The notes under the pieces are model-generated. The model was not told where the DNA came from, ran no database searches, and saw only the letters and a program-made list of their open reading frames with translations. 27,373 nucleotides of DNA, taken from IMG/VR virus record IMGVR_UViG_3300016265_000701, positions 1 to 27,373 of that record; one strand, given 5' to 3'. This DNA comes from a virus. Lineage: Duplodnaviria > Caudoviricetes. The translations under genes and the position numbers were made by a program. How positions within the stretch are numbered: the first letter of the stretch is position 1; each line of letters begins with the position of its first letter. Positions 12,861 through 26,803 of the stretch are shown in pieces.

Positions 12861-13751
12861 TTAAGCCTTGATAACGCCCTGCAGCGAGCGGTTGCTCACC
12901 GTGGCGTTGCCCATCCAGATGACGTTGCGAACCATCGCGTCCTGATTGATGGACTCGATTTCGTCGAGCATCGTCATGTTGGCGTCGCGGTGAACCACAA
13001 GGTCCATGTACTTCGTGTTGAGGAAGTACGCGTGGGCAGCGGGAATGCCGCCCGACGAGTCGAAAAACACGTCGCTGGTCTTGTACTTCATCGCCACCAT
13101 GCCGCCCTGACCGTTCTCGTCCGGCGCGTAGCGCTTGAGCGAAGTCTGGCTCTGCTCGTAGAACGCGAAGTAATCGTCCGACATCACGATGAGGTCCGGC
13201 ACGTCGGTGCCGCGAGTCAGGCGGATGTACAGCGGCAGCATCAGCGACTCGATGGTCGAGGCCGACGGGGTGATGCCCGCGCCGCCCTGCAGCGGGGCCG
13301 CAGCGGACTGCACGACGTTCTGCCAGAAGGCATAAGTGCTGCTATTGATACCGCCCACGGTGCCGGTGCCGGCGTCGCTGACGAGCGCCTGCAGGCCGTT
13401 GATCTGGTTCGCGGCGGTGCCGTCCGAATACAGGTCAGCCGACAGACCGTTCGCCATGCTGTTCTGCGCGTTTTTCACCTTCGCCTTGACGAAGTTGATG
13501 ATGCGCTGCTCGCCGGAGTTCACGCGCATTTCGTAGCCCGAAACGGCGATGGACACAGCAACCTGACGCCACGGGTATTCCGCAGCCGACAGCACGTCCA
13601 CGGCGCTGATGTTCAGCACATCAAAGCCGGAGTAACGCTGATAGGTGCTGTTGCTGGCGTATTCCAGCGGCTCGACAATCGAGAGGCCACCGTCCTCGAT
13701 GCGAGTCTTGCCCGCTTCCTTCAGTTTGCGGAAAAGTGCGTTGTGACGCGT
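12861..13751 (-). CDS. Major capsid protein, exon 2 (296 aa)
   Basis: TRHNALFRKLKEAGK...GGLSIVEPLEY...INGLQALV...GTVGGIN...NRSLQGVIKA. Joins exon 1 in frame to give a 331-aa protein. Confidence 0.9.
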   Translation of the reverse strand, partial: TRHNALFRKLKEAGKTRIEDGGLSIVEPLEYASNSTYQRYSGFDVLNISAVDVLSAAEYPWRQVAVSIAVSGYEMRVNSGEQRIINFVKAKVKNAQNSMANGLSADLYSDGTAANQINGLQALVSDAGTGTVGGINSSTYAFWQNVVQSAAAPLQGGAGITPSASTIESLMLPLYIRLTRGTDVPDLIVMSDDYFAFYEQSQTSLKRYAPDENGQGGMVAMKYKTSDVFFDSSGGIPAAHAYFLNTKYMDLVVHRDANMTMLDEIESINQDAMVRNVIWMGNATVSNRSLQGVIKA

Positions 13752-14511
13752 CAATTGTGTTACTGCACCGGCTCTTTATCCGGCGCTTCACTGACTTTCG
13801 CCAGTGTTCAGACTATATCATCGCCTTCTTACGCTGCTTGGTTGCGCTAATCTTCGCGCCGTGGCCTTTCGGGATGCCGCGCTGCGCTAGGCTTCGCTTC
13901 AGGTTCGCCTCGGCTGACCAACGATTCCCCACAACATTCCGCGCCGCTTCAACGCCTTTTAGCGTTGCCTCGCCGCCCAGGCCGCTAGACCTGTCGTGCG
14001 CGTTGTAGAGCTTGCCGGCGTCACGGTAGAACTCAATCCACCGCTGCTCGGCTTCGTTGTGCGCCCCGCGCTTCGGGTAGTCCGTTTCCTCAAGGACTCG
14101 CATCCGAAAAGCCTGCTCACCGTACGCCTGCCAATCCTCCGCTAGTTTCGTTGCATGGTGCTTGCCGGAGCGGCAAAGACACCGATGCTCGCGAAACCGC
14201 TTCGATAGCTTGGCGCTCGTCACGCCAACGTACGCGAAACCATTAACCTCACATTCAAGAGCGTAAATAACTGCCATTCGGGTTCCCCTCTCTGGCTTGT
14301 TGAAAGCGCCCCGCGCTCGTGGACGTTTCGCCCGTTCTGGGTTACTTCGTCTAGTCGTTGAACCTTCACCGCATTCCTGCGGCGCTTGGCTGCTGATTGC
14401 CCAATCCGCCCTGTTTTCACACCTTCACGCTTACCCTTGCGGGTTACGTTGTGGTCAGGCCGGCTTAAGGGGTTTCCAGCAATTCACGGGGTTTTAAAAC
14501 GTCTAGTGTCA
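13752..14511 (-). ncRNA. Group I self-splicing intron (760 nt) in the major capsid gene
   Basis: P1 AACGUU|..GACGUU with a U-G wobble at the 5' splice site; P3 CCCCGUG/CGCGGGG; P element AAUUGCUGGAAA; Q element AAUCAGCAG; P7 GACUA (14352-14356) / UAGUC (13811-13815); P8 CGCUUUC/GAAGGCG; P9 CACUGGC-GAAA-GUCAGUG; terminal G at 13752. Confidence 0.93.
13813..14277 (-). CDS. Intron-encoded GIY-YIG homing endonuclease (154 aa) in the P8 loop
   Basis: VIY...AYVG...KRFREH...EAEQRWI...LYN motifs, then NUMOD3-like WSAEANLKRSLAQRG and HGAKISAT; GAGGGG RBS. Confidence 0.92.
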   Translation of the reverse strand: MAVIYALECEVNGFAYVGVTSAKLSKRFREHRCLCRSGKHHATKLAEDWQAYGEQAFRMRVLEETDYPKRGAHNEAEQRWIEFYRDAGKLYNAHDRSSGLGGEATLKGVEAARNVVGNRWSAEANLKRSLAQRGIPKGHGAKISATKQRKKAMI

Positions 14512-14616
14512 AACGTTATCCGCGATTTCCTTGCGATGCGCACGGAACGTGGTGGAGACAAGCTCCGAAAACACGTTAAACGCACCGGCCGCAAAACCCT
14601 GTCCGGGTGAAGCCAT
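14512..14616 (-). CDS. Major capsid protein, exon 1 (35 aa)
   Basis: Not in ORF track. GAGGT RBS after the scaffold stop. MASPGQGFAAGAFNVFSELVSTTFRAHRKEIADNV, then an in-frame TGA that is the first intron triplet. Confidence 0.9.
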
Positions 14617-14628
14617 AGTGAGTACCTC

Positions 14629-15642
14629 TTAACCCGCCCGCAGACGTGCGAGCGTTTGCTTGATGGTGTCGTCCATTGTCTGCCCTGCGGCAGGTTCCAC
14701 CGGCACTACGCTGCTGCGCGAGCGTACATTGACGCTCGCCGCTTCTCGCGCCGCTTTCGCCGCCTTCGCCGCCTCCTCGCGCTCGCGCTGGGCCTGCTGT
14801 TGAGCAACCAGGGCACGCGTGTTGGGATTGGCGTAAACGGCCTGCGCATAGGCATCTTCAAGCGAGTTCGCGAGGCCGGCATTGAGTAATGCCGCCATGT
14901 GTTCACGCACTGCGTCGAAATGGCTATGGCTGGGGTCAGCAGCAAAACGGGCGATGTCACTGTGGAGTGACTCGTCCTCCTGCTGCCGGCCCATCATCTG
15001 TTGCTGAGTCAGGTACTGCTGTAACTGCTGTACCTGCTGCTGTAGCGCGCTCACCGTCGAGTCGACGGGGGCGGGCTGATAATTCTGCAACTGCCCGATG
15101 TCGATGCCGTATGCCTGCGCCAGTTGCGCGAGGTACTGCACCTTCTGTTCGGGCGGGCTGTAGCGGAGCTTCGCGTCCGCGTTGAGCAGTTCGGAAATGG
15201 CCTGTTCGGGAGCCACGCCCAACTGCTGCATCGTCTGCAGATGGGGCTGTATGGCCTGCCCCACCACCTGGGCGAACTGCGCCGCCGATTTGTACTGTTC
15301 AATCCCCTTGTGAAAGTCCGCCTCGCGTCGGGCGACTTCCTGCTGCACCAAGGGCGGGAGCTTCGCCCACTCCGCAGCGGCTTCCTTCTTCCACGTATTT
15401 GGCGGCGGGGCGACCGGCTCTGGCGGCTGCTCAGCAACTGGCTCAGCCTGTACTACCTCCTGCTTCGCGAACCTGCCTGCTTCATCGCGAACGCGGTTAT
15501 CGGTCGGGGTTTCGGGTGTCTCCGGGGTCGACATCTTCGCGAGGGCCTCGCGAATGGTGTCGTCCATCGACTTTTCTTCTAACTCCTCGACCTCGATTCC
15601 GGTGTCGAGAACTTCCGCGTCGAGGGTTGCCTCGTCCTGCAT
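14629..15642 (-). CDS. Capsid scaffolding protein (337 aa)
   Basis: Start moved to ATG 15642 (GGAG RBS). Acidic N-terminus, RDEAGRFA, PPNTWKKEAAAEWAKLP, Gln-rich coils; directly upstream of the capsid gene. Confidence 0.85.
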   Translation of the reverse strand: MQDEATLDAEVLDTGIEVEELEEKSMDDTIREALAKMSTPETPETPTDNRVRDEAGRFAKQEVVQAEPVAEQPPEPVAPPPNTWKKEAAAEWAKLPPLVQQEVARREADFHKGIEQYKSAAQFAQVVGQAIQPHLQTMQQLGVAPEQAISELLNADAKLRYSPPEQKVQYLAQLAQAYGIDIGQLQNYQPAPVDSTVSALQQQVQQLQQYLTQQQMMGRQQEDESLHSDIARFAADPSHSHFDAVREHMAALLNAGLANSLEDAYAQAVYANPNTRALVAQQQAQREREEAAKAAKAAREAASVNVRSRSSVVPVEPAAGQTMDDTIKQTLARLRAG

Positions 15643-25315: not shown

Positions 25316-25524
25316 TTCTCGCCGAACCCCGCGCTTTCCCAAGCATCGGCACACGCCAACTTGTGCCCGAGGCACGCCGCCTTGGCCTCATTGGCCGAGT
25401 TGAACGTGCCCAAGTGGTCGGGGAATGAACCCGGCCGCAACATGCGGGCTATCCATCTAGGGCCTGACATCACGACGACATACGGAGGGCAGCGGAATGC
25501 GCCGGGTTCGGCTCGCCATTTCAT
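25312..25524 (-). CDS. Hypothetical protein (70 aa) with AP2-like HLGTFNSANEAKAAC
   Basis: ATG 25524 overlaps the methyltransferase stop (ATGA). Confidence 0.7.
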   Translation of the reverse strand: MKWRAEPGAFRCPPYVVVMSGPRWIARMLRPGSFPDHLGTFNSANEAKAACLGHKLACADAWESAGFGEK

Positions 25525-26333
25525 GCGGCGGCCCTCACGATTGCCCGCCCGATGATTTCCGCGATTTGCGGGACAATGGCATTTCCGAGGCATCTAAGGC
25601 GGTCCACCCTTCCGGAAAGCCCATCAGTCGCTCGGCAAAAGTCGGGTTCAACTTGCCACTGTCCGTTACTATCGCGGACAGGTAAAAGTGGGAAGTCCAG
25701 TGGGCGTGCGATGCCGTTCCTTTCGGCCCGCATCCTTTCCATTCCGCCGCGCGAATTGTTGGCAACAATGAACAGCCTGTCTCGCCGATGCTCTGCGCCA
25801 ACGGCAAGAGCTGGTAGTACGACCGGCGCGACTTCGTAACCTTCAGCTTCCAAGTCAACCGCGCATCGCTCAAGGGTTGACTCAATAGCCCCGCCAACAT
25901 TTTCGGCAACAACCCATTGCGGGCATAGTTCGCGGACGACCCGGATAAATTCCGGCCACATATCGCGCTCGTCGTCTGTTCCTCGTCGTTTTCCGGCCAC
26001 AGAGAAAGGCTGACAGGGAAATCCTCCGCAGATGACATCTGGCGCTCCGTATTCGTCTGTTAGTTGGTCGGTTCCGATGCAGGCGCATTCGCCAAATTCC
26101 TCATCACAACGAGGACACCATACGTTGCCGTCCTCGTTTTCTTCCTCGCAGTCATACAGACGCCTGGCGAGTTTCGTGATGTCTCCGAGGTTTGGAACAT
26201 CGGGCCAGTGTTTTTTAAGGACTGCGCTTGCATACGGATCTATCTCGCTTTGCCATATGATTTTCATCCCGGCCCGCTCTAAGCCGAGGTCAAACCCACC
26301 AATTCCCGAAAACAACGATCCAACGGTCAGCAT
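25521..26333 (-). CDS. C5-cytosine DNA methyltransferase, alpha polypeptide (motifs I-VIII and X; 270 aa)
   Basis: Start moved to ATG 26333. SLFSGIGG (I), GGFPCQPFS (IV), AENV (VI), HRRDRLFIVA (VIII), LGNAIVPQIAEIIG (X). No motif IX in this frame. Confidence 0.93.
   Translation of the reverse strand: MLTVGSLFSGIGGFDLGLERAGMKIIWQSEIDPYASAVLKKHWPDVPNLGDITKLARRLYDCEEENEDGNVWCPRCDEEFGECACIGTDQLTDEYGAPDVICGGFPCQPFSVAGKRRGTDDERDMWPEFIRVVRELCPQWVVAENVGGAIESTLERCAVDLEAEGYEVAPVVLPALAVGAEHRRDRLFIVANNSRGGMERMRAERNGIARPLDFPLLPVRDSNGQWQVEPDFCRATDGLSGRVDRLRCLGNAIVPQIAEIIGRAIVRAAA
25535..26038 (-). CDS. Nested +1-frame ORF: putative methyltransferase beta polypeptide carrying motif IX (167 aa)
   Basis: GGAG 7 nt before ATG 26038; GKLNPTFAERLMGFPEGWT matches the motif IX pattern; lies entirely within the alpha gene. 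Confidence 0.8.
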   Translation of the reverse strand: MSSAEDFPVSLSLWPENDEEQTTSAICGRNLSGSSANYARNGLLPKMLAGLLSQPLSDARLTWKLKVTKSRRSYYQLLPLAQSIGETGCSLLPTIRAAEWKGCGPKGTASHAHWTSHFYLSAIVTDSGKLNPTFAERLMGFPEGWTALDASEMPLSRKSRKSSGGQS

Positions 26334-26803
26334 GCGTCGTCCCCCATGGCTTGTCTGAAATCGGGCACCGCGAAATCCGGGCATTGCGGGGCTATCGAAA
26401 ACTCCAGCGTGCCCACCGTTCCATTCGCCCGCAGGGCCTGCATGCGTTTCAGTTCTTGTCGGTAGTGTTTCGCAATGGCCGACGTTTGCTTTCTCAGGCC
26501 CCTAGCCGGTTTGTTCGCCAGTTCCCTTAGCGCGTCCACCACGACTATTCCGCGCAGTCGCCACATGAGGTCGCTATGTTCATTCGGCCGACTGCCGACG
26601 TACTGGTGACAGCCGTAGCACAGGGCTACGCCGTTCAATGGGTGGAATCGGGTGCTCCAGTTGCCCCGGCCCATGTAGTGGCTACAGTGCAAGCCCTGCG
26701 GCTTGTGTTCGTAGTGCGTTCCGCACCGTTCGCAGAACCATTCGGCCCTTTCGCGGACACAACGGCTGAATGCCGAATCGGCCGGGGTGATAAGCAGACT
26801 CAT
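26327..26803 (-). CDS. NinG/Rap-like zinc-binding HNH recombination nuclease (158 aa)
   Basis: DSAFSRCVRER...CERCG...LHCSHYMGRGNWSTRFHPLNGVALCYGCH; start moved to ATG 26803 (ATGA overlap). Confidence 0.8.
   Translation of the reverse strand: MSLLITPADSAFSRCVRERAEWFCERCGTHYEHKPQGLHCSHYMGRGNWSTRFHPLNGVALCYGCHQYVGSRPNEHSDLMWRLRGIVVVDALRELANKPARGLRKQTSAIAKHYRQELKRMQALRANGTVGTLEFSIAPQCPDFAVPDFRQAMGDDAC

Follow-up and report, generated by a model that had tools for sequence, protein, structure and literature searches.

Introns in the major capsid genes of phages have been described before. In the Mycobacterium siphovirus LittleE, splicing of a capsid intron was demonstrated by RT-PCR and N-terminal sequencing, and the same publication mentions a reported capsid intron of Tuc2009 (Pope et al., 2013, PMC3706429). 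Moreover, for the uncultured crAss-like phages of the Delta and Zeta groups, group I introns were reported to sit typically in core genes, among them that of the major capsid protein (Yutin et al., 2021, PMC7886860). The intron of the T4 td gene, which encodes the nuclease I-TevI, carries an in-frame stop codon at the 5' splice site, an open reading frame (ORF) overlapping the ribozyme core and a sequestered ribosome site (PMC3073962, PMC3984707). The closest cultured relatives of the ribozyme core described here are found in the Bacillus phage Hakuna's DNA polymerase gene, the ribonucleotide reductase gene of Twort and the capsid gene of the Bacillus phage SP-15 (73–76% identity over 95–143 nt), the Hakuna and Twort introns being nearest; in the SP-15 record, the capsid gene is annotated as joined over a related intron that contains a nuclease ORF.

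The window, i.e., the whole stretch of DNA analysed here, spans the full 27,373 bases of an IMG/VR virus record and is approximately 72% complete. We consider it highly probable that its podovirus-type major capsid gene is interrupted, between codon 35 and codon 36, by a group I intron encoding a GIY-YIG nuclease, and that this intron likely self-splices from the late transcript to restore a protein of 331 amino acids and likely spreads by homing. Like the LittleE intron, it is about 0.8 kb long, lies near the start of the capsid gene, has U/G boundaries and contains a nuclease ORF; unlike here, the LittleE nuclease is encoded on the opposite strand of a siphovirus and belongs to another family, and the intron class is only presumed in that report, which concerns one genome, whereas a large same-site family is found here (PMC3706429). 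With T4 td/I-TevI it shares the GIY-YIG domain, an ORF ending in the core, a hairpin at the ribosome site and the in-frame stop (PMC3073962). The T4 intron differs in interrupting thymidylate synthase and in carrying its ORF in L6 instead of L8, and I-TevI extends to residue 245, whereas the window nuclease comprises 154 residues with a short helical tail. Features common to the Hakuna and window introns are the P7.1 region, the joiner following it and the P9.1 loop; the introns of Hakuna, Twort and SP-15 differ from the window intron in residing in other host genes or an unrelated capsid family and in encoding another nuclease or none. The crAss-like cases concern large Bacteroidetes gut phages with another capsid family, and their introns were identified by nuclease domains (PMC7886860).

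The preliminary description of this DNA had called capsid insertions less commonly reported, which agrees with the older literature, but such insertions have been published (PMC3706429, PMC7886860) and are common in IMG/VR. None of 50,697 phage records covers 80% of the window intron. A literature search, whose coverage mostly excluded subscription papers and in which Table S1 of PMC11878797 (>100 phage introns) was not compared, found no paper on this intron family and no capsid-first survey, and the accessible parts of PMC10580990, PMC12350094, PMC6125680, PMC11835236, and PMC12880540 contain nothing on the family. The intron family is apparently both widespread and undescribed. New here are the family itself, its shifts to neighbouring sites, and the observation that the capsid gene outnumbers every other named host gene in three IMG/VR motif samples.

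Exons, boundaries, and ribozyme core of the capsid intron

The minus strand of the window encodes portal and head genes, and the sequencing runs containing the window sequence are mostly from freshwater. No host is claimed, since four genome_contigs loci lie in bins of unrelated taxa. The capsid was assigned to phrog_9953 and NF033394 and shows 38% identity to the capsid of the Myxococcus phage Mx8. Exon 2 (12861..13751, minus strand) comprises 296 codons and a stop (phrog_9953, E 6e-75). Exon 1 (14512..14616, minus) consists of 35 codons ending in D-N-V. It equals residues 1–35 of the intron-less homolog P0001, in which these residues are contiguous with an exon 2 that is 96% identical, and its residues show a mean identity of 79% to 108 homologs of 331 amino acids. 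The ribosome binding site that the preliminary description had assigned to this exon is a Shine-Dalgarno-like purine-rich stretch at 14625..14630 (minus), which shares bases with the upstream gene's stop; its anti-Shine-Dalgarno duplex amounts to −7.1 kcal/mol vs. −4.3 for the TTG at 13754. Joining both exons by removing 14511-13752 gives 331 amino acids with one stop, which is exactly the length of 108 of the 120 best capsid homologs. Among the 80 closest capsid loci, 76 are contiguous and four (two of them identical) contain 764–808 nt at the same point. P0001 matches NF033394 with E 3e-91 and 305.9 bits (cut-off 80), the capsid family model starts at residue 16, i.e., within exon 1, and a structure model of P0001 (pLDDT 77.8) has a phage-capsid fold with the cyanophage Mic1 capsid as best match (E 1.5e-11). 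Two database proteins of 297 amino acids, P0003 and P0004, start just ahead of exon 2 and are probably gene-caller truncations of intron-split capsid genes. At the window locus, too, a key marker gene is called without its 35 N-terminal residues.

The group I intron itself extends over 760 nt (13752..14511, minus), opens with an in-frame TGA and has G as its final base, so that unspliced RNA encounters a stop directly at the junction, as had been noticed before. The covariance model RF00028 matches with E 2.7e-11 and 49.3 bits over model positions 1–253 with an insert of 465 nt. At the gathering threshold, Rfam returned no match in the whole window; the default scan misses the intron because the gathering score is 50, which exceeds the score of the intron by 0.7 bit. 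P1 (14498..14517, minus) is formed by the last six exon bases and the guide at 14503-14498, and the exon U pairs with G 14503 at the 5' splice site; besides the fold, P1 is based on a compensatory change in the relative L239 and on guides re-matched at other insertion sites. The 5' part of the core (14309..14491, minus) contains P3 (14491-14485 with 14315-14309), P4, P5 with a long extension (14472-14399), P6 and P6a, the 5' strand of P7 (14358-14352) and P7.1 (14351-14322), all on the minus strand. The 5' strand of P8 (14302..14308, minus) pairs with 13828-13822, closes the loop containing the nuclease gene and covaries in 41 relatives. The 3' part (13752..13815, minus) provides the 3' strand of P7 (13815-13810), P9.0, P9 with a GNRA loop, P9.1 with an invariant loop and the terminal G 13752. 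Thus P1, P3, P4, P5, P6, P6a, P7, P7.1, P8, P9, P9.1, and P9.0 are present in the window, which bears out the boundaries, the U-G pair, the terminal G and the six core helices (P3, P4, P6, P7, P8, and P9) read earlier from the letters alone. P10 is modest in the window, with two of five pairs in near register and a duplex of −4.4 kcal/mol. Other frame-keeping splice points exist and were rejected, as the U-G pair or the terminal G is lost. Neither a second copy of the intron nor a second intron was found in the window, and a scan for RNA families revealed no aptamer or other RNA family beside the intron.

The absence of P2 was recognized correctly, as there is no room for it: the gap between guide and P3 measures 6 nt in 39 of 41 relatives. 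The extended P5 is real in the window, yet it is optional, since most relatives possess a short P5. The P7.1-like insert is a single branched stem that covaries in 41 relatives, and no separate P7.2 was seen. Additional stems between P7 and P3 are a trait of the IA subgroup, and IA2 is the usual subgroup of phage introns. The lack of P2 has been linked to IC2, IA1, or IB4, and the Twort intron is reported to have P7.1/P7.2 (PMC1995217); the subgroup scheme is described as fitting phage introns poorly (PMC11878797).

The nuclease gene in loop L8 and the same-site family

While the preliminary description recognized the group I intron, it overlooked a GIY-YIG endonuclease gene (13813..14277, minus; 154 amino acids) that occupies 465 of the 760 nt and lies in loop L8, its last codons overlapping P8, J8/7, and P7. 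The protein matches PF01541 with E 1.5e-10 and 41.6 bits (cut-off 22.6), as do 12 of 12 aligned relatives, and a profile search recovers the I-TevI catalytic domain (E 2.5e-10). The structure model superimposes on the solved I-TevI domain (PDB 1LN0/1MK0) with a TM score of 0.86, and the active site aligns with Arg27, Glu75, and neighbouring residues of I-TevI (1MK0/1LN0). Y5, Y16, G18, R27, H31, H40, E77, and N92 are invariant in 42 of 42 relatives. The cut-off of TIGR01453 is missed (50.5 vs. 56.05 bits), with positions 1–108 of the 215 of the profile covered. The C-terminal part matches no Pfam family at E up to 1 and is modelled with low confidence (pLDDT 56–67). Within it, residues 136–147 contain an 11-residue motif that is invariant in 12 of 12 aligned relatives, is more conserved than the catalytic domain and matches no family; this motif is probably DNA-binding. 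The stop codon of the nuclease falls within the 3' strand of P7, as it does in 29 of 42 relatives. A hairpin (14273..14296, minus; −8.6 kcal/mol) covers the start codon and the Shine-Dalgarno sequence (14290-14285) of the nuclease gene, and it is present in 40 of 41 relatives, with nine double changes in the upper stem and, in the lower stem, four at a single pair.

Searching with the nuclease yielded 158 loci, redundancy included, of which 150 carry capsid sequence just downstream; of the remaining eight, five end within 90 nt, one shows a weak unrelated match and two were unresolved. Both boundaries could be placed in 118 of 159 sequences, the window counted, resulting in 90 distinct introns at the capsid D-N-V site, 42 of them at <90% identity. 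The covariation set comprises 41 of these 42, as L239 was dropped from the pair counts after its anchor had failed. All seven P3 pairs are retained in 41 of 41, with 10–23 double changes at four positions. P3, P7.1, P8, and P9.0 exceed partner shuffles (0/2000 each), as does P10 (0/5000), in shuffles that ignore relatedness. None of P1, P7, and P4 provides an independent covariation test, the first two having been anchors and P4 having had its partner fitted. The P9.0 pairs hold in 38/41 and 37/41 relatives with 13 double changes each, and this covariation fixes the position of the terminal G. By eye, P7 shows a double change in L238, L245, and L307, and looks degenerate in L247. The decamer of the P9.1 loop (13771-13780, minus) shows no variation across 42 of 42 relatives, and the Hakuna polymerase intron has the identical decamer. 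All 90 introns begin with a stop, a count that is partly built into the extraction pattern. Nine further copies, read by eye, had their 5' site missed by that pattern; a stop opens eight of them, and in L248 the third codon is a stop. Seven of the pattern-missed copies lie one codon later and L322 lies 14 codons earlier, with the guide matching the respective exon. The family offers a compact GIY-YIG nuclease of 154 amino acids with a predictable target in 42 diverse copies.

Several related arrangements were observed besides. Copies of the same intron and nuclease occupy neighbouring sites in L221, L236, L238, L245, L247, L265, L307, and L322. A second intron lies further down the same capsid gene in L254, L263, and L311 and, by eye, in L258 and L358. 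Related introns occur at other sites of the same capsid family in L107 (1250-1800, minus), where the nuclease is absent, and in L096, where it is more distant. A same-site intron without nuclease is present in L196 (1-470, minus).

Probable splicing and homing, and the observed allele states

That the full-length capsid protein requires splicing is well supported, in agreement with the earlier suggestion that capsid synthesis depends on it; that splicing takes place we infer. On the model of T4-type introns, ribosomes on exon 1 would halt at the in-frame stop opening the intron and would thereby be kept out of the ribozyme, guanosine would attack at the U-G pair of P1, and P9.0 together with P10 would set the 3' splice site. 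The hairpin at 14273..14296 would hold translation of the nuclease low, because its ORF ends inside P8-P7, where a ribosome would unfold the core. Capsid alleles lacking the intron are the predicted target of the nuclease during co-infection, and repair of the cut would then copy the intron together with the last U of the exon.

Four of 24 listed sequencing runs were examined; the window may itself derive from one of them, X1, which is not independent. The DNA run X2 contains an intron contig with a depth of 6.3 and a contig of 67 nt that skips the 760 nt with a depth of 10.2; the latter is read as the genomic empty allele and not as a spliced product, since X2 is a DNA run. The RNA run X3, examined at the level of contigs only, gave one unspliced contig across the intron with flat depth and no exon joint, which may derive from DNA and provides no evidence either way on splicing. 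In run X5, 462 nt of the nuclease gene are missing from a contig, the remainder of which still folds P8. Near-identical phages therefore exist in three states, namely intron-less, with the full intron and with a nuclease-less intron, which are those expected of a homing cycle, so that wild populations contain all three of its stages. In a quick capsid tree with unbalanced sampling (26 intron-bearing and 64 intron-less sequences), presence changes seven times, at least five of these changes being forced by strong branches; 16 of the 42 intron copies had been left out for their short exon 2, and the intron-less rows are all close relatives. The intron-bearing L290 and the intron-less L003 have identical exon-2 proteins. 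The valine codon at the junction ends in T in 90 of 90 intron alleles vs. 10 of 48 intron-less N-V junctions, and in the intron-less neighbours it ends in G, including the X2 joint as read by eye. The U of the splice site probably arrives with the intron, because the empty alleles mostly lack the final T of exon 1.

Patchy presence could also reflect repeated loss, and we regard it as unlikely, if worth weighing, that the intron is old, vertically inherited and lost many times, its nuclease no longer mobilising it or mainly damaging competing phages. Such descent would agree with the existence of a nuclease-less derivative and with the loose correlation between intron-core and capsid identities (rho 0.42 over 325 pairs), but in L212, L300, and L306 the capsid is at odds with the intron. 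L212 has an intron of a distant type beside a close capsid, its core being nearest to that of L249 (79%) while the two capsids are only 33% alike. Furthermore, had the intron been lost precisely via a spliced copy, the valine codon should end in T and not in the observed G, and loss would be required in most close relatives.

A mobile element spreading by homing remains preferable as well to the proposal of the preliminary description that the intron is a GTP-sensitive control point for capsid synthesis, which we now consider very improbable; the analysis yielded no support for such a role, and the intron is dispensable and polymorphic. Group I splicing requires guanosine, the capsid protein depends on splicing here, nuclease-less copies persist (X5; L196), and a role as "molecular-on-switch" has been proposed for phage introns, the idea having been published for Bastillevirinae (PMC11878797). 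A control point of this kind is, however, difficult to reconcile with the 76 intron-less loci among the 80 closest, with empty and filled alleles within one DNA sample, with a presence that flips between near-identical genes, and with the lack of an aptamer or other RNA family beside the intron. Patchy alleles together with a conserved, intact-looking nuclease fit a homing element rather than a GTP switch. Finally, a shorter capsid starting at TTG 13754, with the insert as a free-standing nuclease cassette and no splicing, would fit the 297-aa ORF listed by gene callers, P0003 and P0004, and the missing joint in the RNA run, but it is scarcely credible given the poor ribosome site at 13754, a conserved exon 1 with its own start, a capsid family model beginning inside exon 1, the covariation of the entire ribozyme core, and a last intron triplet that is TTG or GTG in just 4 of 42 relatives.

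Host genes of related cores in IMG/VR

Three motifs from related cores were used to survey IMG/VR. With the motif from the window intron, 53 loci were tested of 71 distinct ones among the first 80 matches listed (L092-L171); 30 of the 53 matched major head proteins, which fall into seven PHROG families, and three matched polymerases or a reductase (E up to 0.001). Motifs taken from the reductase intron of Twort and the polymerase intron of Hakuna gave 79 and 65 distinct loci, respectively, among the matches listed (L373-L452, L495-L574), and host genes were assigned at E up to 1e-8. For Twort, the host gene was a capsid gene in 17 of 62, a replication or transcription gene in 12, and a member of a possible terminase family in five; for Hakuna, 26 of 50 were capsid and six were replication or transcription genes. 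Many flanking stretches gave only the nuclease or nothing, phage families were not dereplicated in these counts, and at least one contig occurs in two sets. The capsid is the commonest named host gene in all three samples of this biased collection. IMG/VR favours contigs with hallmark genes.

Capsid genes nevertheless look like a far commoner home for group I introns than usually assumed. We tentatively suggest, as a possibility somewhat short of even, that in uncultured phages group I introns reside mainly in major capsid rather than nucleotide-metabolism genes, because the most abundant late mRNA would suit reverse splicing best and the most universal conserved gene would suit homing best. 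The present family would show this process, with one ribozyme and one nuclease at no fewer than three sites within 15 codons via a re-matched guide. For fungal rDNA, it has been argued that new sites are reached through reverse splicing (PMC1299323), and the application of this route to capsid mRNA is our inference by analogy. If the survey survives correction for bias, both the commonly assumed preference for DNA-metabolism genes and the idea of a GTP switch derived from it would reflect which phages were cultured.

Elsewhere in the window, an ORF of 195 amino acids on the opposite strand (1489-2079, plus) lies among lysis-type genes and appears HNH-like by eye, with no NCBIfam match. A DNA cytosine methyltransferase (TIGR00675) is encoded at 25521-26384 (minus), and its gene is overlapped in another frame by an ORF of 167 amino acids (25535-26038).
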